From NCBI GenBank assembly GCA_964583485.1, contig CAZOVC010000002.1, forward strand, positions 2,959-66,958: DNA of 64,000 bases. Direction: 5' to 3'. This document shows positions 51,612 through 64,000 of the stretch, piece by piece. Each line of letters starts with the position of its first letter. Positions within the stretch are counted from its first letter, which is position 1. Both the position numbers and the translations under genes were made by a program. Under the pieces are notes generated by a model that was not told where the DNA came from, did not search any database, and saw only the letters and a program-made list of their open reading frames with translations. The stretch is from an uncultured Candidatus Saccharibacteria bacterium. GTDB lineage: Bacteria; Patescibacteriota; Minisyncoccia; Minisyncoccales; GWA2-38-27.

Positions 51612-51682
51612 ATTTTTATTATATCAAAAAAGCGTCGAAATGGCGATTCTTTGTGGCCGATCGACCCCGAACAAAGTTCGAT

Positions 51683-51712
51683 GTCCTGGACGGGTACGGG
51701 TTTAGGACGCCA
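51683..51712. repeat. Direct repeat aaagttcgatgtcctggacgggtacggg (copy 1), recurring at 53822-53851; together with aggcctctcggtcg (51728 and 53749) it brackets the high-GC island
   Basis: 28 of 30 nt identical between the two copies. Both lie in GC-rich non-coding DNA. Confidence 0.45.
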
Positions 51713-51922: not shown

Positions 51923-52159
51923 CTAAATATCAAAATAACTGTCAATTTCTTCTCTCACTTCTTTAATCAGTTTTTTCTTTTCATCTTTCAATTCAAATGC
52001 TTCTTTTACCAATTTTGTAATTTTATCAATAGAATTTTTGTCTAAAATTGGTATTTTAAAATCAAGAAGACGATTTGAAATTGTTGGTATTGTTGATTGA
52101 ATTACAGTGTACTTTTCGCTTTGGCATCCGGCGACTTCTTTTATTGTTGGACTAAAAGG
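51923..52159 (-). pseudogene. Start-less C-terminal gene fragment (about 78 codons, ...IKEVAGCQSEKYTVIQSTIPTISNRLLDFKIPILDKNSIDKITKLVKEAFELKDEKKKLIKEVREEIDSYFDI*); probable remnant of a gene truncated by the GC-rich insertion
   Basis: Hand-translated from the minus strand. Host-like AT-rich codon usage. The open frame runs into the 52154-52241 hairpin with no start codon. Confidence 0.3.
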
Positions 52160-52241
52160 GGTCAGGTACCTTTTTTACCTTTTTTAGGTCTTCCCCTAGG
52201 ATTTAATGTTGAGTTAAAATAAAAGGTACCTGACCCCTTTT
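52154..52241. other. Large perfect hairpin: 21-bp arms aaaaggggtcaggtacctttt / aaaaggtacctgacccctttt around a 46-nt loop
   Basis: Read from the sequence. Lies at the junction between host-like DNA and the GC-rich segment. Confidence 0.5.
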
Positions 52242-52598
52242 ATTTTACACATCGTTGAAGTTGAAGTAGGGCGCGTTCGAGAAATCGCCATCAGCGTCAG
52301 GTTAATTGCCTCCACTCATCCATGTCACCAGACCGCGAAGTTTACTGCCTTAAGGATTATATCTTTTTGGTCTTGTATTTTATTCGGCAGCATCCCGCTA
52401 AAAGCGGGAACCTGCGCTAAGCAGAGGCAAGCAGTATCTCCTCAGCACAACACGCTCTTAGAAACCGTAGTCGCTAAGACTCTGGTTGCTTTTCTCCTAA
52501 AGAGAGAGTTCGGCGACAGCAATCCGTAAACTACTATGCATTAGCCTAAGCTCATTTATAAGTATATTGAATTCTAAAAAAGAAGCAAGTTTTTGAGA

Positions 52599-52652: not shown

Positions 52653-52716
52653 ATTCAAGGATCAAGATACAAGAAGTCAAAAGACTCAAGAACTCAAGAC
52701 TTCGAGATTCAAGACT
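52653..52716. repeat. Eight tandem degenerate octamers (minus strand: agtcttga atctcgaa gtcttgag ttcttgag tcttttga cttcttgt atcttgat ccttgaat) starting at the stop codon of the 52709..53578 gene
   Basis: 8-nt periodicity with a conserved tcttga core. Lies in the 3'UTR before the terminator. Confidence 0.45.
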
Positions 52717-53578
52717 GCGGGACAAACCCAGAGACAGAACCGCAGAGGCCGTGCGGGCCGTCAATCCTGCGCGTGTCGAACCCGACCCTGCCGCCGTAGA
52801 AGCCGAAGGACGGAACGTGAGAAAAGTCGTCGAAAGCGCCAGGAGCATACTCATCTCCAGCACAGTCGATCCAAAGATCGTCATAGTGTTGGAGACGCTC
52901 GGGATGGGTTAGTAACATGCACCCGATCTCGAATGCGCCAAGTCCGAACTCATTGGCCGTAAAAACCTCACGAGCTCGACGGACACTGCGACCCCGATGA
53001 CGGAGACCGAACTGAGCTGCCACGACCAGAATGTCGTAGCCCTTCTGCTGGTCAGCCAGTACTTCAAGCTTTTTCGCCGTGCGTTCGTGCTGTCGGAGAT
53101 GTTTCGCTCCAAGCTGGCCTTCACGGTAGTTGCAGAACTTGCCCTTGCGCTGTTGCTTAATCAGCTCCAGCACCTTCTCGACCGCCTCATTGTAAGTCTT
53201 GGCGACCGACTGCCAGCGAGGAATGGCAAACCATCCTTCAGCATTGACTGGAAGCGGCTGGGAAGCCAAGTTCTCGTCAGCGTAACCGATGCCAGGGAAA
53301 AGTTCGCGCAAGCGGTTCGTCTGTTCGGTAATACCCTTAGGCTTGTAGCCTGACAGATAGCCGTAGCTTGACTCTACCTCTTCATCGGCGAATTGGTTGG
53401 ACACAACCAGCTCCTGTATCAGTTTCATAATCTCTCTCTTGAGTTCGTCGCCACGCTCATTTAGTCGTTGAGCGTAGTCTTCGTCCAGCCCCGAATCATT
53501 ATACGCGGCTTCAAAAATACTCGTTGCTTGCCGACCCTTTGGGTCTCTTGACGTGATCAATGTCGTAGACATCGTCAT
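52709..53578 (-). CDS. Hypothetical protein encoded on a high-GC (about 55%) island; likely horizontally acquired
   Basis: 289-aa ORF with RBS AGGAGGcg-ATG. Its GC-rich codon usage is sharply different from the rest of the window. Confidence 0.5.
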   Translation of the reverse strand: MTMSTTLITSRDPKGRQATSIFEAAYNDSGLDEDYAQRLNERGDELKREIMKLIQELVVSNQFADEEVESSYGYLSGYKPKGITEQTNRLRELFPGIGYADENLASQPLPVNAEGWFAIPRWQSVAKTYNEAVEKVLELIKQQRKGKFCNYREGQLGAKHLRQHERTAKKLEVLADQQKGYDILVVAAQFGLRHRGRSVRRAREVFTANEFGLGAFEIGCMLLTHPERLQHYDDLWIDCAGDEYAPGAFDDFSHVPSFGFYGGRVGFDTRRIDGPHGLCGSVSGFVPQS

Positions 53579-53969
53579 CGCCTCCTTTCTACCCTATAAT
53601 GTAGGGCTCTAAAGTAAACCTTATTTTCAAAGAACTTCACTATGTTATAATTATAGCAAACTGTCAAGAAAAGTCAAGGGTTTAGTAAAAAATTGGGATT
53701 TGAAATTCGATTAATAAAAAACTCGTAATTCGTTATTTCGTGTTTTTTTGAGGCCTCTCGGTCGCAAGAACCGAGCACCAGCCTGCTCTGGTGCTGCGAT
53801 TCGAACTGTCTCAAATTCGAATAAAGTTCGATGTCCTAGACGGGTATGGGGACATTTTTCTCGAACTTTTTCCAAAATATGAGGCGGATCGGTCTCTCGA
53901 ACCGCGCTCAAGGTAGCTGCGGGAACTGGAAAACGTTAGAAATTGTTTAATAGCAGATTCGCTGGCATT

Positions 53970-56717: not shown

Positions 56718-58871
56718 TTAATCCCAATCGACTTTTTCAATCTTTGGGTTAAGTTTTTTCATCGAATTATACCACTTTTGAAATTGTGCTTTAGTATCCT
56801 CTTTTTCTTTTTGATCTAGTATCAACTCATAGCTCGTAAATAATTCTGGAGGATTCCCTATATATACTCCTTTCTTCCAAAATTTTACCAAGGCCTCCAT
56901 AATTTCTAACAGGCTTCTAGTATCGCATTTAGCTATTACTTGTATCATTCTTTCTGCCGACATCAACCATATACCATTATAACCTTGTATTTTTTTCTTT
57001 CCTTTCAAAAAATCAGAAATTCTTAATAACATTATTTTATACCAATGAATACAAATAAGTGGTTCCTCTTCTACCAAATCTTCTATAATCATCTCGAGGT
57101 GGCTATAAATATCTCTTTGATATGGACACTCTAGAAATAAATCAATATAGGGTTTTATTGTCTTAAACTCAATTTTGTTGTCTTTTAAAATTTTCCAGAA
57201 ATGCCAACTAATACTTCCGCGCAGTTCATTATAATTCCTATCTGTATTTTTAATCATCTCTATTAATTTTTTTTCTAATTTTTTGCCATCAAATTTAATA
57301 GTTGGTTGATCTTTATAATGTCTTTGGCGAAAAATACCGAAATAAACAAAAAGTGGAGCAGACTCATCTGTGATTTTTAGAGCATCTAAGACCCTTTCCG
57401 CTTCTTTTGTTGATAAATCTTTATAATACGCAAAAACATGGCATAGCCATTTTGCAATAGCTTTATAGTTCGGATTTTTAGCAACAAGTCCGACTAAATC
57501 AAAAGTTAATTTATTAAACTTTTTATATACTCTTCGATACGGTCTCTTGCCATAACCGTCGAGTAATTGTCTCCTTGCGGTAATTTCGGTTAGAGAAACA
57601 ATGGCTTGCTGTTTAATGTAAAGGTTTCTATGCTTTAGTAATTTTTCAGTATAATTTAAAGCTTTATTTATATATTTTTTATTTTTCTCCTCTCTTTGAA
57701 ACGCAAGTCTCTGGATTACCCAAGCAAGATGACCCAACACGGTAGTAATAATATGCGGATCTTCGCCATTGATAATTTGTTGATGGTAGTTAAATTTCGG
57801 ATCGCCTTTATAATTTTCTGGCTCAGCTGGATCTGGATCGTCTATAAATTTATCAATAATCCAGATAGCGTCATTAAATCTTTCTTTTTCGGCTAACCAA
57901 ATACCAAGTCGCACCATTTCTTCACGAGTAAATTTATCTATGAAAAGTTGATAGGGTTTTTTATCTTTTAGAAATTTTCTAAGGGCGGAAAATAGTTTTT
58001 CTTTATGTTCATCTCCTAATTTTTCTAACAAATAAAACCATTTTTCAAATAGTTGTTTTTGTTGTTTATTTGAAGGTTTAATTTTTTTCTTATCAAAAGA
58101 AGTCAAAAAATCTCGACTATAAAGAATTTCATGGAAAAATTGTCCATCTCTACTTTCAAATTGAAGCCAAATTTCTTCAATATTTTCGTAATTTAAAAGT
58201 TCTTTATAAGAGAAAGTTAGAGCCTCGATGAAATCGTTTGTTCTGTCGCCAAAAAAATACTTATTAACTAATAATAAAATTTTTCTATCTGCCGTTAACG
58301 CGCCTAGTTGTTTATTTGCGGTGGTGATTTTAGGGCCAATGTTTTGATGGATAGTTCCGGCGGGGTTGATTGACCTAACAGGGCCCATTGAAGCTGCCAA
58401 TGCTACCTTGTTCTCTTTTCCTTCGGATTTGCTTATTACTTCAAAATCTCCTATTCCCTCAACGAAGATATCTTTTTGATTGTTCCGAAGAGCATTGATA
58501 ATAATATCGGCTATTATTTTTTCCTGTCCAGCTTTAACTTTTAAATGCCAAGGAAAATTAAGAAAATAAATACCTCTCGGAAATTTTGAATCTTTTATAC
58601 GTTTGTCTAATTCTTCTTGTAATCTTTTTGTGTTATACCCTCTTGACATCGATTGCTCTAACTCCTCTCTCTCATGCACTTCTTTTATTTCGATCGCAAT
58701 CTTTGGTTGCACTAAAAAATAATCCGGAGCTTTGTATTGATTATTTTTATCGGGACAATCAATATCAACCTTTTTTATTTTTGGAAAATAGCTAGATAAA
58801 TAAAACTCAACAAGCGGCTTAATATATTTATCTTCCCTTTTAGGTTGTTTGTAGATAAAATCAATTTTCAT
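56718..58871 (-). CDS. Large hypothetical protein with an N-terminal PD-(D/E)xK-like nuclease motif and a long helical C-terminal region
   Basis: APDYFLVQPKIAIEIKEV fits the D...E-x-K pattern. No known family for the remaining 600 aa. Co-directional with the R-M gene. Confidence 0.45.
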   Translation of the reverse strand: MKIDFIYKQPKREDKYIKPLVEFYLSSYFPKIKKVDIDCPDKNNQYKAPDYFLVQPKIAIEIKEVHEREELEQSMSRGYNTKRLQEELDKRIKDSKFPRGIYFLNFPWHLKVKAGQEKIIADIIINALRNNQKDIFVEGIGDFEVISKSEGKENKVALAASMGPVRSINPAGTIHQNIGPKITTANKQLGALTADRKILLLVNKYFFGDRTNDFIEALTFSYKELLNYENIEEIWLQFESRDGQFFHEILYSRDFLTSFDKKKIKPSNKQQKQLFEKWFYLLEKLGDEHKEKLFSALRKFLKDKKPYQLFIDKFTREEMVRLGIWLAEKERFNDAIWIIDKFIDDPDPAEPENYKGDPKFNYHQQIINGEDPHIITTVLGHLAWVIQRLAFQREEKNKKYINKALNYTEKLLKHRNLYIKQQAIVSLTEITARRQLLDGYGKRPYRRVYKKFNKLTFDLVGLVAKNPNYKAIAKWLCHVFAYYKDLSTKEAERVLDALKITDESAPLFVYFGIFRQRHYKDQPTIKFDGKKLEKKLIEMIKNTDRNYNELRGSISWHFWKILKDNKIEFKTIKPYIDLFLECPYQRDIYSHLEMIIEDLVEEEPLICIHWYKIMLLRISDFLKGKKKIQGYNGIWLMSAERMIQVIAKCDTRSLLEIMEALVKFWKKGVYIGNPPELFTSYELILDQKEKEDTKAQFQKWYNSMKKLNPKIEKVDWD

Positions 58872-58873
58872 AT

Positions 58874-59335
58874 TTAAGTTTCCTTAAATTGATTTACAGA
58901 AGATTGGAATTTTGCCCTAAATTCATCTAACGATTGTCGGTCGATAAAATGAAGGTTGCGAATACCAATACAAGCTGATCTTATGTAATCTTCGGTATTG
59001 CCCTGAAATTCACCATCCGTTACTAAGTAAAATCCATCTATTTTATAATCTTTCCCATCTACATTTGTAAATTTCCCAAAAGCAATAGAGAGCTGTCCGA
59101 TTATTTCTTTTATTTTTTGTGTTGGCTTCCCGGTACATTTTATGTTGCCGGTTTTTATTTGCATACCATATGCCCTCAGCAGTCCGAAGACATCAAGTTT
59201 GAGAATCACTAAATCTAATCCGAATTCTCTTGAGCCGTGTTTATCTAAAATTCTCTCTTCGGGCTGTTTTATAGCTTCTAGAATAGATTTAATTTCCTTT
59301 CTTAGTTTGTCTTCTTTATTCATTTTTAATTCCAA
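58874..59335 (-). CDS. Small hypothetical protein, possible Mrr-like restriction endonuclease fold
   Basis: GLDLVILKLDVFG...YGMQIK segment. Overlaps the R-M gene start. Confidence 0.35.
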   Translation of the reverse strand: MELKMNKEDKLRKEIKSILEAIKQPEERILDKHGSREFGLDLVILKLDVFGLLRAYGMQIKTGNIKCTGKPTQKIKEIIGQLSIAFGKFTNVDGKDYKIDGFYLVTDGEFQGNTEDYIRSACIGIRNLHFIDRQSLDEFRAKFQSSVNQFKET

Positions 59336-61151
59336 ATAGCTTTTTAACTAATTCATCATTCTCCCCCTCCAGCTTTCCAATCTCGTTTTCTTTGCCTTCG
59401 GATTTGAGTTGGTGGCAGTTTTTGGAGACCTCGGCGAGTTTTTGGTGAAGTTCATTTTTTGAATCAAATTTTGGAATACCGATGTGCTCCATTACTGAAG
59501 GCGTACCAAAGCCCCGACCAGCAGAAGAAAAAGATTTAATAAAATCACGAACTGGTTTTGAATTGATAATGGCACAAAGATAGTGAGCTTCGGTTTCGTT
59601 CTCAACGGGGAAAATAACAGTTGTATCAAGAGAAATTATAGATTTATAACCGAAGGGAGTTTTAATCTCTGAAATAACTGTCGCCACAATATCCGTGGTC
59701 ATTCTTTTCCAAACCACTTTATAACGACTAAAAGTATAATTTCCGATGTTATACTGACTATAAAAAGGTGCGCCTGATTTCAAATGGAATTTTTTATACG
59801 ATGTTCTTGATAATAATTCTTCTCTAAATTTAGTTAAATAACTAAAAGTAAGTGGCCAATCAGATTTCATTCTAGATTCATCGTATCCCTTCATAGGATT
59901 ATCTTTATCGTTCACAAGGAGAACAAAGAAGTTTGAATCAAGTCCCCATCGTTTTATATTCGGTCCCTGAATCGCTGGATAAACTAAATTGGGTTCTATT
60001 TTTTCTTCTATCTTCTTAATTTTTGTTCTACCTCTTTCGGACAAGTTAGAAATAAGTAAATTACCATCTGATAGGACTTGTTTTACTTCAAGCCAAAATA
60101 TGCCATAGGGATCAGCCCAAGCGCCGGCTCGATCCTTATAAAAATTTTGCCCTTCAATGGCGAGTAAACCTTCCTCGCCAGTCTCAATCGTTTGCCAGGC
60201 GCCAACGTTTGTTCTAATTGGTTTGGCTATTAACTTTTTTCTGTTTAATAAAGTTAGAACCTCATTTAACAACTTATCCGTGGCGATTTTCCCTATGCCT
60301 TTTTTCTTATTCCAAACAATATAAGAAACTGGATATTCTGTTCTCTCTCCTTTTTTAAGGATTATTGCGGCAGTTTTATTTGTTGCTCCTTCAAATGGTT
60401 GAATAGAAACTAAATCGTGGGCTTTCAATATTTTTAGATAACTTCTGTCGCCTAATTGAAATCGTCTAAAACCTTCACCTGCTCCTTTAGCTTTAAAAAC
60501 TTCTTGGGTTATTAAGAACCCTAATTTTGCTCCATCTTTTAGATAATAATCAGACGAGGCATAAACAAAAAGCATTGAAAAATCTGGTTTTGCGCCGCCA
60601 AGCATTTGTGCATATCCTTTAAGCGAAAATAATCCATATTCTTTCCAGAGATGTCTTGTCGCTTCTCTATATTCTTCAGCAAGGAAATCCCATCTAATCC
60701 ATGGCGGATTACCAACAACAAAATCAAATTTACCGGCGACCATTGGAGCGAAGGCGTTTTTGAGGAAGCGGGCCCAAATGCCGTTTTTATTTTGTTTTTC
60801 AAGTTCCAAAATCTGATTGTAGAAATTTTTAACCACCTCTTGATTGATTGGGAAAAGTAGACCTTCCTTTTTAAATCTACTCATTGCTTCATTAACCGAG
60901 TACTGATTTTTTGTCATTTCTTCAACAAGTGGCGCAGCGTCAGCCAGCAAAAATCCGCCGTCTCGAACCCACTCGGCTGGCACTTGAAATTTTCCAACAG
61001 AAGTTGAAACTTCCAAAAACTCGCCAAAAAGATTTCCCGTTGTTCTCGTGGGAGTTAAAACCGAATCAGTAAGATAAATCGGAATTTCTACTCGTGGGAG
61101 TTCATTTGCTAAATCACCCAGAGCAAACAAATAATTGGTGCGGGGCGACAA
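59316..61151 (-). CDS. C-terminal part of an MmeI-like type IIL/IIG restriction-modification enzyme (N6-adenine methyltransferase motif IV plus target-recognition region)
   Basis: DFVVGNPPWIRWD (NPPW). TTG start. It continues the upstream ORF in a different frame. Confidence 0.6.
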   Translation of the reverse strand: MSPRTNYLFALGDLANELPRVEIPIYLTDSVLTPTRTTGNLFGEFLEVSTSVGKFQVPAEWVRDGGFLLADAAPLVEEMTKNQYSVNEAMSRFKKEGLLFPINQEVVKNFYNQILELEKQNKNGIWARFLKNAFAPMVAGKFDFVVGNPPWIRWDFLAEEYREATRHLWKEYGLFSLKGYAQMLGGAKPDFSMLFVYASSDYYLKDGAKLGFLITQEVFKAKGAGEGFRRFQLGDRSYLKILKAHDLVSIQPFEGATNKTAAIILKKGERTEYPVSYIVWNKKKGIGKIATDKLLNEVLTLLNRKKLIAKPIRTNVGAWQTIETGEEGLLAIEGQNFYKDRAGAWADPYGIFWLEVKQVLSDGNLLISNLSERGRTKIKKIEEKIEPNLVYPAIQGPNIKRWGLDSNFFVLLVNDKDNPMKGYDESRMKSDWPLTFSYLTKFREELLSRTSYKKFHLKSGAPFYSQYNIGNYTFSRYKVVWKRMTTDIVATVISEIKTPFGYKSIISLDTTVIFPVENETEAHYLCAIINSKPVRDFIKSFSSAGRGFGTPSVMEHIGIPKFDSKNELHQKLAEVSKNCHQLKSEGKENEIGKLEGENDELVKKLFGIKNE

Positions 61152-62505
61152 TAACCGCCAAAGGATTCAAGTCAAAACCCCAGATATTGGCGACAATTCT
61201 TTTAGCTATTTCAAGTGACGGCCATTTTTCTTTTTGTCCATGTTCTTTAGCTCGTTGAATGGCCAAAACAAGAAAAGTACCCGAGCCACAAGCGGGATCC
61301 AAAAATCTTTTAAGCGTATTACCGTCATAGCCAACCTCATTAAGTAGTAATTCCGCCAGCCAATCGGGCGTGTAATACTCGCCAAGGCGATGACGAACTT
61401 CCTGCGGGACTAAATACTGATAAAGTTTTTTAAGTAGGTCGCGGGTCGAAACAGGATCTAAAGTGCTTGTTGCTGGTTCGAATTCGGAAAGGGCTCGGCC
61501 AATTTCTCTAATCGCTTCTTTTAACTCCGGTGATTCAAAAGTATCAAGATACCAACGGAAGAAATCGCCTTCCAAAAAATTAGTAATTCCTTTTCGGGTG
61601 TAAACTCCGCCGTTTTCTATATCTTCAAGTTGTCTTTTAAGTTCGTCGTCAGAAATATGAGCAAACTGAGAAGCGAGAGATGAACTAAAAGACGTTTCTC
61701 TTAATGTTAAAAGTTCGGCAGCGATAAGTTTCATTAAAAAAGCAAAGTAGGTATGGACAGAAAATAAAAGCTCTTGAAAATCTGTTTCTTTGCCAACTCT
61801 ATAAAGTTTTGAAAGTGTGTCCGCTTCTTTTTCTTGCTGGCCACCCGTAAATTGTTCGCCATAAACAATGCCAAATAATCTTTTCCACTCATTAAAAAAT
61901 GTGCGGATGTGTATTTGATTACCCCAGTATTCCAAAGCGTTGGCAAGGGCCGAAACCATTTTGGGGGCGAGTTCGCTTTGAGGACCAAATTTTTGAGCTA
62001 AATTTTCAGCTGTGAGAGGAAGACGAGATAAAGCTCGTAGATAAATTAAAAAAGTTCTCGCACTTTCTGGATTAAAATCATAAGGCCCACGGATAGAAAG
62101 AAGAGGATATTGAACAAAGAAAATCTGTTCGCCGTCAAATCCTACTCCGACTAACTGCTTTAACTTTGTTTCTTTCGCCTCATCGGATAAATAATTCACT
62201 AACTGATCATAGGCGTGATCTATATTTTTCTTTGAAGAAAATGATTTTGGCGATTCGTATTCGATAATTACCTGTCCGTGCATTGCGTCTGAACGACCGC
62301 TATAAACAGACTTCTCATATTTTGGAGTTGACTTAAGATTTAATTCGGTCTTAAGCGGATCTAAAAGTTTTTCAAAACCAATTCGTAAATCTTCTTCTGT
62401 TTTGGCTTCGCGAAGTATATTTTTTGTTCCAGAAACCAAATCATCCGCTAATTTCGGGAGTGACTTTTGACTTTCATTTTTATTTGGTAAATCTTTAATT
62501 TTCAT
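61114..62505 (-). CDS. N-terminal part of the same MmeI-like enzyme (PD-(D/E)xK nuclease, helical spacer, SAM-binding motif I)
   Basis: RSDAMHGQVIIEYESPK (nuclease D...EYK) and LDPACGSGTFL (motif I). Ends 38 nt inside the next ORF, a frameshift at a GGGG run (61142-61145). Confidence 0.6.
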   Translation of the reverse strand: MKIKDLPNKNESQKSLPKLADDLVSGTKNILREAKTEEDLRIGFEKLLDPLKTELNLKSTPKYEKSVYSGRSDAMHGQVIIEYESPKSFSSKKNIDHAYDQLVNYLSDEAKETKLKQLVGVGFDGEQIFFVQYPLLSIRGPYDFNPESARTFLIYLRALSRLPLTAENLAQKFGPQSELAPKMVSALANALEYWGNQIHIRTFFNEWKRLFGIVYGEQFTGGQQEKEADTLSKLYRVGKETDFQELLFSVHTYFAFLMKLIAAELLTLRETSFSSSLASQFAHISDDELKRQLEDIENGGVYTRKGITNFLEGDFFRWYLDTFESPELKEAIREIGRALSEFEPATSTLDPVSTRDLLKKLYQYLVPQEVRHRLGEYYTPDWLAELLLNEVGYDGNTLKRFLDPACGSGTFLVLAIQRAKEHGQKEKWPSLEIAKRIVANIWGFDLNPLAVIVAPHQLFVCSG

Positions 62506-62506
62506 A

Positions 62507-63568
62507 TTAACCTCGGTTAAACTTATAACTTATCAATTCGTCGTAGGATTTATCTTTAAAAGCGCTTTTGTTCTTTTCAATAACATCTAATTCTCCCACT
62601 CCGTTTTTATTTCTTGCTCTGATATAACCATTACGTTCACCGCCTTCATCGGTCTTTATGTCTACCCGAATAGTATTTTCGTTTTTACGCTCAACTTTGA
62701 TAATTTTTGTTTTCTTTAAATCGTATATCAATTTTTCTGCGCCAGAAAAAGCACCTCCAGGCATTTTGGTAAAATCTAAATTATCGCTACCTCTAATTGC
62801 GAACTCCTCTCTTGAAAAAAGTTGCTTGAGCAATAATGTTTTAAGATGAATTACTAAATTTCTATCATATGCAGGAAGGAATTTTTGTAGATCGTCTTTT
62901 ATCTTTTTATCATCAAACTTACCAACCTTTTCATAGACATCTTGAAAAGATGCGGTCTTTTTATAAAACTCTAATTTTTTATTAACCATCTCCCAATCAA
63001 CATCAATTCCTTTTGATAATAAATACCAAAGGTCATAAACATCTCTTCCCTTAGCTCTAATTATAAAAGCTCTGATTTTTTCGGCTAAAACCTCCTGCCA
63101 CCCAAGATGTCGAATAATGGGCTGAGGACTAATAGGAAGATCAGTCTCTAATACCTTTTCTTCTTCTGTGAAAGGTTTCTCTCTAGTGGAGAATTCGATA
63201 TGGATATTTAAAGGAAATTTCATCTCTTCGGTTTGATAACTTAAAATACCCGAAAGAGATTTATTCCCCACATTAACCTTTTTTAAAGTCGTGTCAGGAA
63301 TAACTAAATTAACTTTTTTCAATACATCTTCTAAACAATCTTTCAATTCAGTAATTGTTAACTTGGCTGTGAAATCCAAGTCTTCCGAAAAACGAGAGGA
63401 TTTCAAAAGCAAGTGGATTGCCGTGCCACCTTTAAAATAAATATCTTGACTCTCTTTTCTACTATAGAGAACTCCCAAAAAGACAATCTGAATATATTCA
63501 CGAAGAATGGTAAATTCATCTATAGAAAATCTTTGAGATAGTTCTTTTATCTGTTCTTTTGAAATCAT
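62507..63568 (-). CDS. AbiEii/AbiGii-family nucleotidyltransferase toxin (type IV toxin-antitoxin, abortive infection)
   Basis: YFKGGTAIHLLLKSSRFSEDLDF is the diagnostic AbiEii motif. Confidence 0.7.
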   Translation of the reverse strand: MISKEQIKELSQRFSIDEFTILREYIQIVFLGVLYSRKESQDIYFKGGTAIHLLLKSSRFSEDLDFTAKLTITELKDCLEDVLKKVNLVIPDTTLKKVNVGNKSLSGILSYQTEEMKFPLNIHIEFSTREKPFTEEEKVLETDLPISPQPIIRHLGWQEVLAEKIRAFIIRAKGRDVYDLWYLLSKGIDVDWEMVNKKLEFYKKTASFQDVYEKVGKFDDKKIKDDLQKFLPAYDRNLVIHLKTLLLKQLFSREEFAIRGSDNLDFTKMPGGAFSGAEKLIYDLKKTKIIKVERKNENTIRVDIKTDEGGERNGYIRARNKNGVGELDVIEKNKSAFKDKSYDELISYKFNRG

Positions 63569-64000
63569 AATTTTAGTGATTTAAAATATTTTTTAAATGC
63601 ACGATTGTCTATTTTTGTGGCTAAGTCCTTTAACTTATTTTTATCAATAGAATCTAAGATAAGTTCTTCTACGCTTAAAGAACCTCTCCCCAAGGCAACG
63701 AAAAACAAAGCATCAATAAGCGCCTTTTCGGGGGTAGCAATAAGAAAACCATCTACCTGTTGATAATCTGAATAATATTTTTGATTGAGGTGCATATAGA
63801 CAAAATCCCTACCACCTGCTTCTATCTTTTTTGTGAGATTGGGAGTAATTGAAATAATCTGCTGAGGAGACTGAATTAAAATACCATAATAATTAAGCGC
63901 CGAATCCAAAGACACATAAGAAGGTTTGTATAAAAAATTAGCCAACTCAAAATCGGTAGGTTTATTTGAGATTAAATAATATACGCCCTTTGAGGCTCTT
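63565..64000 (-). CDS. AbiEi-family antitoxin/transcriptional regulator, partial (N-terminus lies beyond the window's right edge)
   Basis: C-terminal region ...ATPEKALIDALFF... . The reading frame stays open to the window edge. Overlaps AbiEii by 4 nt. Confidence 0.55.
   Translation of the reverse strand, partial: RASKGVYYLISNKPTDFELANFLYKPSYVSLDSALNYYGILIQSPQQIISITPNLTKKIEAGGRDFVYMHLNQKYYSDYQQVDGFLIATPEKALIDALFFVALGRGSLSVEELILDSIDKNKLKDLATKIDNRAFKKYFKSLKL

Follow-up and report, generated by a model that had tools for sequence, protein, structure and literature searches.

A candidate two-nuclease module recurrent at the 3' end of restriction-modification operons

No prokaryotic defence is commoner than restriction-modification (R-M) systems, and in many genomes of the candidate phyla radiation (CPR)/Patescibacteria there is hardly any other; little is known of what backs them up there. 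There is published precedent for auxiliary or back-up PD-(D/E)xK nucleases and type IV enzymes embedded in BREX and methylation-based defence loci (PMC12839542). We describe here two adjoining minus-strand genes in a 64,000-nucleotide (nt) stretch, the window, from an uncultured Candidatus Saccharibacteria bacterium (contig CAZOVC010000002.1, positions 2,959 to 66,958), which encode a 717-residue protein predicted to fuse a PD-(D/E)xK nuclease to a helical solenoid (the large protein), and a 149-residue putative Mrr-type nuclease (the small protein), and which lie behind a type IIG R-M gene split by a frameshift. The reading that we favour, and advance tentatively, is that the two form an autonomous two-nuclease module, recurrent at the 3' end of R-M operons, that would act as a second-layer DNA endonuclease. 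The original prediction for this DNA had proposed a novel accessory defence component coupled to the IIG gene; this is substantially borne out in that the pair is R-M-associated, but not in that it is an accessory of this IIG enzyme, since the pair follows at least eight unrelated R-M types and is also found free of R-M genes.

The auxiliary nucleases of BREX-type loci, such as BrxU/GmrSD, resemble the module as extra nuclease genes beside methyltransferase (MTase)-based operons, in many subtypes, and as a presumed second effector layer (PMC12839542). They are, however, NERD, Shedu/DUF4263, HNH-GmrSD and OLD-Toprim proteins, none of which is an ARM/HEAT-fused nuclease with a mini-nuclease partner, and our module has classical R-M systems (types I, II, IIG and III) as its hosts. 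The likeness to PrrC, of the EcoprrI type Ic locus, and to RloC is that of an accessory nuclease in an R-M operon, dispensable for restriction. PrrC, however, is an ABC-ATPase-regulated tRNA anticodon nuclease associated with one R-M type, whereas our module has no nucleoside triphosphatase (NTPase), carries DNA-type PD-(D/E)xK sites, is found behind R-M systems of many types and occurs on its own as well. Neither protein has the ABC-type NTPase and C-terminal RNase domain that characterize PrrC and RloC, and searches of Pfam, NCBIfam and PADLOC, like the AlphaFold2 models, reveal neither an NTPase nor a HEPN-like domain in them.

The two proteins taken singly also have described counterparts. 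The small protein shares the hallmarks of the Mrr family of type IV enzymes and adjoins R-M genes, as in immigration-control regions, but it has no N-terminal DNA-binding domain, scores weakly against Mrr_cat and is interchangeable with putatively Cap4-type nucleases; without a DNA-binding domain of its own, specificity would need to come from the large protein. The latter recalls DSR2 (Sir2 plus HEAT) and Avs (nuclease, STAND and TPR) in having an N-terminal effector followed by a long alpha-solenoid, although the module lacks an NTPase switch, its effector is of the PD-(D/E)xK type, its solenoid, far from being the most variable part, is conserved best, and there is a second nuclease gene. 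R.BspD6I is a heterodimer of a large nicking subunit and a small catalytic subunit, and the pair is similar in that a large recognition and nuclease subunit is accompanied by a small nuclease-only subunit, each presumed to act on one strand. Nt.BspD6I is among the weak Foldseek matches of the small protein; unlike R.BspD6I, the pair has no dedicated cognate methyltransferase and would only putatively be heteromeric, and the likeness is not one of sequence here.

Predicted architecture of the two nucleases

The large gene (56718-58871, minus strand) encodes at its N-terminus, in residues 1-265 (58077..58871), a PD-(D/E)xK nuclease domain with a second alpha/beta subdomain, as seen in the alignment and the AlphaFold2 model. 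The N-terminal sequence expected from the original prediction, APDYFLVQPKIAIEIKEV, is present, and the PD-(D/E)xK motif is invariant across 55 homologues (34-75% identity), with E13, D50 and E61 invariant and K63 at least 90% conserved. The AlphaFold2 model (predicted local distance difference test, pLDDT, 92; predicted template modelling score, pTM, 0.81) gives a helix at residues 14-28, strands at 34-38, 51-53 and 58-65 and a helix at 68-94. D50 thus falls at the beginning of beta-2 and E61-x-K63 within beta-3, which is the canonical PD-(D/E)xK layout. Both the residues and the modelled topology are thus those of the PD-(D/E)xK superfamily.

The remainder of the large protein, residues 266-717 (56718..58076), is all-helical in the model. 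Among the structures of the Protein Data Bank (PDB), Foldseek matches this part with importin-alpha and with designed armadillo proteins (TM-score 0.2-0.46, E about 3e-4, probability 1.0), an assignment to the ARM/HEAT fold class only; Pfam gave no repeat match. A search of the BFVD viral folds gave nothing significant. The predicted architecture is therefore that of an N-terminal PD-(D/E)xK nuclease fused to an ARM/HEAT-like solenoid of ~450 residues. The solenoid is the better conserved of the two: mean pairwise identity is 0.465 in the solenoid and 0.354 in the nuclease domain, and conservation in the family peaks at residues 341-440 (majority fraction 0.70). The peak is centred about a signature block at residues 337-392 (57696..57863), W-x5-F-I-D-D-P-D-P ... 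N-Y-H-Q-Q-I-x2-G-E-D-P-x-I-I-T-T-V-L-G-H-L-A-W, which is conserved across the family and kept in the distant relatives P0242, P0189 and P0228. The better conservation of the solenoid is more in keeping with a conserved ligand than with phage proteins, which evolve rapidly.

The small gene lies at 58874..59323 (minus strand). The open reading frame (ORF) extends to 59335 and could encode 153 residues, but all 27 homologues are about 149 residues long, and the ATG at 59323 is therefore taken as the true start. With this start the gene overlaps the IIG stop codon by 8 nt (ATGAATAA) rather than by the 20 nt first proposed, and 2 nt, instead of 3, separate the small gene from the large one. Six residues are invariant in the 28-sequence alignment: E33, G35, D37, D44, Q55 and K57. 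Mrr-family enzymes (LlaGI, Mrr) have a motif I glutamate, a double-aspartate motif II and a Q-x-K motif III (PMC2790908), and the small protein conforms to this pattern with an Asp-Asp spacing of six residues as against three in LlaGI (PMC2790908). These residues, and weak matches to Pfam Mrr_cat in 12 of the 28 family members (best E = 2.3e-4; the window protein has none at E <= 1), support the Mrr-like signature that had been attributed to it. The AlphaFold2 model (pLDDT 91.7) has an alpha-beta-beta-beta-alpha core, and its top eight Foldseek matches are mostly PD-(D/E)xK nucleases (MspJI, the SPARDA nuclease, Card1, EndoMS and Cap4; E = 0.03-0.1); the family profile matched no PDB sequence. 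There is no Mrr_N winged helix, the 149 residues being the catalytic fold alone, and from alignment and model the protein is a bare Mrr-type catalytic domain devoid of a DNA-binding module.

The pairing of a large protein with a small nuclease recurs in other genomes, although the partner is missing from some. We sampled about 66 non-redundant loci around large-gene homologues (L-numbers below denote loci), and in about 44 of the 55 that are informative for partner counts a partner gene abuts the large gene. Three classes of partner were found, with 33 that are Mrr-like, eight of class B (~275 residues) and three of class C. A class B partner (L005) weakly matches PADLOC LmuA, the Lamassu nuclease (E = 1.9e-6), and the partner at L082 has a faint precomputed match to PF14130; class B and C partners gave no match in a direct Pfam scan. 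In hhalign profile comparisons class B proves related both to class C (probability 92%) and to the N-terminus of ~1200-residue relatives of the large protein (94%). The swapping of partner classes indicates a recurring design, in which a solenoid-fused nuclease is accompanied by an interchangeable free-standing nuclease.

We also considered whether the small protein, the N-domain of the large protein and the Cap4-like partners are mutual duplicates, and this is ruled out by hhalign probabilities below 2%; on profile comparison the Mrr-like family and the large N-domain are separate lineages. One clade has an additional gene of ~220-240 residues that overlaps the 3' end of the large gene (L010:10049-10768, L048:2863-3534, L051:8019-8738 and L053:8091-8762). 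In L010 a precomputed annotation weakly assigns it to HEPN, and the gene may be a third part of the module, confined to this clade.

Restriction-modification neighbourhoods and competing explanations

The window's IIG family is directly upstream of the pair and co-directional with it in 13 loci, and the three-gene unit, whose conservation the original prediction had suggested checking, is kept, with start/stop overlap, in at least 13. Other loci have other R-M systems in the same place: MmeI-type IIG enzymes (L015, L031), an Eco57I-type IIG (L029), HSDR_N-type IIG enzymes (L053, and probably L016), type III Res (L027, L028, L082), HsdS (L038), and DpnII (L022) and AlwI (L056) R-M systems. Start/stop overlap with the R-M gene occurs in several of these unrelated families. 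At L082 (385-10281) a type III-like Res and MTase are followed by a separate Cap4-like partner of 276 residues and then by a 1187-residue relative of the large protein, so that the order of R-M, partner and solenoid is kept. In two further loci (L037:1-5549 and L051:3-5437) an SNF2/DrmD-like helicase and a 1170-1240-residue IIG/DrmMI-like MTase precede the pair, an arrangement that is DISARM-like.

The association is strongly asymmetric. Upstream R-M proteins were recognized by Pfam or PADLOC in 14 of 17 loci scanned, and scans of ten downstream neighbours recognized no R-M protein. In a census that looked within 5 kb of the large gene, using 21 R-M queries, 26 of 47 loci had an R-M gene upstream and two of 42 had one downstream (Fisher p = 1.5e-7; both downstream genes are on the opposite strand), although it is biased because the queries were mostly drawn from upstream genes. 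The Pfam scans, which are a partial control for this bias, and nine fully annotated loci agree in placing R-M genes upstream.

The pair and the R-M genes do not travel as a fixed unit. The IIG enzyme of L077 is 79% identical to that of the window, whereas the large proteins of the two loci are only ~34% identical. In a neighbour-joining tree of large proteins the partner classes and R-M types are interleaved, with L022 (DpnII, Mrr-like partner) sister to L013 (IIG, Cap4-like partner). To judge from these sequence relationships, partner class and R-M type reassort freely. There are also R-M-free loci (L005, L007, L009 and L012), and HEPN, ApeA, Mrr and toxin-antitoxin genes are often nearby.

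These observations are the basis of our preferred reading, that of an autonomous second-layer endonuclease module. A fixed orientation behind at least eight unrelated R-M architectures, with exchange of both the R-M host and the partner, is a hallmark of a functional add-on, and it is this cross-genome conservation, not gene spacing, that carries the argument for association. That the module is autonomous follows from the R-M-free loci and from the intact pair beside a most likely dead IIG gene in the window, and that it is not a IIG subunit follows from its position behind other complete R-M systems. We propose that the small nuclease would dock on its large partner, the complex then having two active sites, one for each DNA strand, with the solenoid as a platform that would recognize a conserved target feature, and that the module would in this way complement whichever R-M system precedes it. 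It could target DNA that escapes ordinary restriction, with a type IV-like logic, or the DNA ends and fragments that restriction produces, and we rate these two options about equally. A more specific form of the proposal, which is possible but which we regard as doubtful, is a generic R-M companion that reads a cue shared by restriction systems of every type (free DNA ends, hypermodified escaping DNA, or the collapse of methylation and restriction that follows a phage counter-attack) and completes the destruction of the invader. Were the solenoid to be this reader, with its invariant W/R/D/Y residues and its DPDP...NYH...GEDP loop, it would represent a novel type of sensor, of DNA or of state, in prokaryotic immune systems.

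Several points weigh against this reading in addition to the bias of the census. About 45% of informative loci have no R-M gene within 5 kb upstream. Genomes of this kind are compact, the large gene being 19 nt from xseA, and tight spacing is consequently weak evidence of co-function. No named nuclease family was matched by sequence with the N-domain of the large protein, and in structure the small protein resembles known nucleases only weakly (E = 0.03-0.1, as given above). The domain charges are mildly basic (isoelectric point about 8.9). ARM/HEAT solenoids bind proteins more often than DNA, which favours a sensor of phage proteins.

Such a sensor is central to the best-surviving alternative, which we consider unlikely but worth keeping in view: a guardian or abortive infection device with the logic of PrrC or PARIS, in which the solenoid would sense an anti-restriction factor or the failure of restriction and unleash the nucleases on the DNA of cell and phage alike, so that the infected cell dies or is arrested. 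Besides the protein-binding habit of ARM/HEAT folds, this explanation is favoured by the putatively Cap4/LmuA-type partners, nucleases of that type being typical abortive-infection effectors, and by the HEPN, ApeA and toxin-antitoxin genes near several loci. The position of the module inside or at the end of R-M operons is like that of prrC in ecoprrI (PMC12707154), and the layout of an effector and helical-repeat sensor resembles DSR2 (PMC11263360). However, the R-M hosts (types I, IIP, IIS, IIG and III) are too diverse for a shared guard contact, phage triggers usually diversify sensors whereas conservation in this protein is highest in the presumed sensor, and there is no NTPase or other switch domain. 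The module also persists both where R-M genes are absent and beside a frameshifted R-M gene, and loss of R-M alone is thus not lethal via the module.

Somewhat less probable in our estimation is an independent defence pair that merely accumulates near R-M genes and has no functional link to them. In uncultured lineages, the CPR among them, R-M systems predominate in defence islands, and the neighbours of the pair (Mrr, resolvases, HEPN, ApeA, toxin-antitoxin and AbiE genes) are typical of such islands; the ~45% of loci with no upstream R-M gene, and tight packing that occurs regardless of function, as at xseA, point the same way. Random clustering in islands should, however, be symmetric, and the upstream, co-directional excess of R-M genes (26 of 47 against two of 42) weakens the case for hitch-hiking. 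The gene order kept by the very distant 1187-residue relative, and the start/stop overlaps with R-M genes of several unrelated families, also speak against it.

A third explanation, close to that of the original prediction, is that the pair are missing subunits of the type IIG enzyme, for example its real cleavage subunits, in a three-protein R-M system. The overlapping three-gene unit in at least 13 loci is what this would predict, and the IIG enzyme has an unusual nuclease motif, D-x8-E-x-E, which lacks a conserved lysine. We nevertheless find it improbable, because the pair is also located behind systems with their own endonucleases (DpnII, AlwI, type III Res and MmeI-type IIG) and alone, the IIG gene and the pair reassort independently, and strict conservation of the IIG N-terminal motif argues for function. 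A role in the mobility or maintenance of R-M cassettes, as an insertion-promoting nuclease or through post-segregational killing, is very improbable, for although the housekeeping genes on either side of the R-M and pair cassette differ from genome to genome, with no integrases, and resolvases are near two loci, the unit is not flanked by direct or inverted repeats in the window, transposase and integrase domains are lacking, and the family is absent from the plasmid, phage and viral collections searched.

If the second-layer endonuclease reading is confirmed, the module would represent a new accessory layer of R-M biology and a new nuclease-solenoid architecture, and the idea of a generic R-M enhancer or guardian would be directly testable with the intact three-gene operons of L001 (6281-12145) and L003 (658-6457).

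The split type IIG gene

The gene upstream of the pair is in two minus-strand ORFs. The N-terminal half (61114..62505, 463 residues) contains the nuclease motif, a helical region and MTase motif I, and has a Pfam N6_Mtase match; the C-terminal half (59316..61151) contains MTase motif IV, NPPW, and a TaqI_C-like target-recognition region, and matches Pfam Eco57I. Both match the PADLOC profile REase_MTase_IIG PDLC03630, the first at profile positions 15-462 (E = 5e-119) and the second at 462-1085 (E = 2e-153), and since together they cover one profile end to end they are a single gene cut in two. The coding-strand junction, GTCGCCCCGCACC, holds one extra C (a +1-nt insertion giving C4, GGGG on the plus strand at 61142-61145, where the homologues imply C3), and deletion of one C restores a 1062-residue ORF with the junction NPLAVIVARTNYLFALGDL, common to six intact homologues to which the repaired protein is 71-79% identical overall. 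The split by frameshift that had been inferred from the ORFs is therefore confirmed, with the length adjusted from ~1070 to 1062 residues.

The same junction is present in contigs from JGI 3300031586, SRR9707467 and SRR9705735 that are 99.99-100% identical to the window. Because three independent assemblies carry the identical lesion it is real in the population, and a sequencing or one-off assembly error is ruled out as its cause. Phase variation we also discount, as a C4 tract would be too short for it. The lesion looks recent in that there are no further stops. Because the frameshift parts MTase motif I from motif IV, the IIG gene has most likely been inactivated by the additional C, leaving the pair and the AbiE genes intact beside it, and the persistence of the module next to it shows that the module can outlive its R-M host.

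The motifs previously quoted are all present in the repaired protein, with GRSDAMHGQVIIEYESPK at residues 70-87, LDPACGSGTFL at 402-412 and NPPW at 599-602. MTase motifs I and IV are kept in seven sequences and identify a gamma-class N6-adenine (N6A) MTase, and the repaired protein scores above the Pfam cut-offs for Eco57I (E = 2.8e-10 in the C-terminal half) and N6_Mtase. The N-terminal nuclease motif is D73-x8-E82-x-E84 in seven homologues, with a lysine at position 87 that varies (K/R/G), and by alignment it is an atypical PD-(D/E)xK variant with no conserved lysine. We note in the same region (62287-62301, around residues 69-73) a strictly conserved GRSDAxHGQVIIEYE block.

Assignment of the enzyme to the MmeI-like, type IIL group did not hold up. 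The MmeI nuclease motif is D-x8-E-x-K, which is not found in the repaired protein, and a Pfam scan of that protein detected none of MmeI_N, MmeI_hel, MmeI_TRD and MmeI_C. It scores 25.7 bits against MmeI_Mtase, under the 27-bit cut-off, and no MmeI chain is among the PDB sequence matches at E <= 1; the IIG enzymes of L015 and L031, by contrast, match both MmeI_N and MmeI_Mtase. On these comparisons the window enzyme belongs to the Eco57I/PglX-like group and membership of the MmeI family is unsupported. It resembles the gamma-MTase IIG enzymes of that group (PDLC03630) from end to end, with an N-terminal nuclease, an N6A MTase and a C-terminal TaqI_C-like target-recognition domain, and differs in that the window copy is frameshifted.

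Family distribution and flanking features of the window

An exhaustive profile search defined the large-protein family, and after clustering at 50% identity there are 484 representatives at E <= 1e-3 and 240 at E <= 1e-30, almost all of them metagenomic. Only seven of 185,579 species-representative genomes carry it, and carriers include Saccharibacteria, Berkelbacteria, WOR-3, a Pseudomonadota metagenome-assembled genome and an Asgard archaeon. Plasmid and phage collections searched by tblastn with the large protein, and a scan of IMG/VR, gave no match. The sporadic distribution points to an accessory gene of uncultured lineages and, with contexts that are always variable R-M or defence loci, rules out a housekeeping role for both genes; the housekeeping homologues against which the original prediction had been hedged were not encountered.

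The search of defence databases that had been recommended found no match for either protein in PADLOC-DB v2.0.0 (E <= 0.1), although this is the 2023 version and a newer catalogue might already list the family. Neither protein matched Pfam 2025, NCBIfam 2026 or PDB sequences, and we found no description of a family of such large and small proteins in the literature. The family is missing from every annotation library tested, and the module is probably undescribed.

Distant relatives of the large protein vary in their N-terminal parts. A Pfam scan of ten of these, including forms of ~1200 residues, found no informative domain other than a LexA-type winged helix-turn-helix in P0228, an 832-residue protein with this domain at the N-terminus (LexA_DNA_bind, E = 5e-18) and the solenoid in the C-terminal half, an architecture that hints that the solenoid works in a DNA context. 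The ~1200-residue forms (P0242 and about 15 similar representatives) have a Cap4-like N-terminal nuclease, ~450 helical residues and the same solenoid. On the chromosome of Candidatus Atabeyarchaeum deiterrae (CP147780.1; L019:7386-9551) a homologue aligns only from residue 182 on, with 39% identity, so that the nuclease N-domain is divergent or replaced, and neither a partner nor an R-M gene was recognized upstream. The large gene is broken into two or three ORFs in L035, L036, L056, L063, L069 and L070, and in L035 the small gene is broken too; the module is thus frequently pseudogenized, which is common for costly defence genes.

Six minus-strand ORFs had been described at this end of the window and each was recovered at its proposed position (the 717-residue ORF at 56718-58871 and the 153-residue ORF at 58874-59335 among them). 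Furthest upstream is the AbiE pair, which is confirmed. The C-terminal part of the antitoxin and regulator AbiEi is at 63565..64000 (minus strand) and continues past the window edge; it matches PADLOC AbiEi (E = 2.4e-24) and Pfam AbiEi_1 (25.1 bits, cut-off 22.2). The full protein, seen at L080 (164-745), has 193 residues with AbiEi_4 and AbiEi_1 domains, and its start is 146 nt outside the window edge. The nucleotidyltransferase toxin AbiEii (62507..63568, minus strand, 353 residues) matches Pfam AbiEii (E = 6.4e-29 over residues 37-234) and PADLOC AbiEii (E = 5e-36), and has a C-terminal extension of ~110 residues outside the Pfam domain. AbiEii with an adjoining upstream AbiEi, the genes overlapping by 4 nt, is the arrangement expected of an AbiE system.

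Scans of the window from 48 to 64 kb found no tRNA or Rfam match, and a promoter and terminator scan gave counts equal to the shuffled expectation and was uninformative. In this same interval a 33-nt direct repeat, 91% identical (51668-51700 and 53818-53850), flanks a 2.15-kb patch of raised GC content (0.44-0.51 as against about 0.35), within which no tRNA or Rfam match was found. The patch contains a 289-residue ORF (52709-53578, minus strand) with no Pfam match, about 1 kb free of long ORFs, and a perfect 22-nt inverted repeat (52153-52174 and 52221-52242), and it looks like a small foreign insertion.

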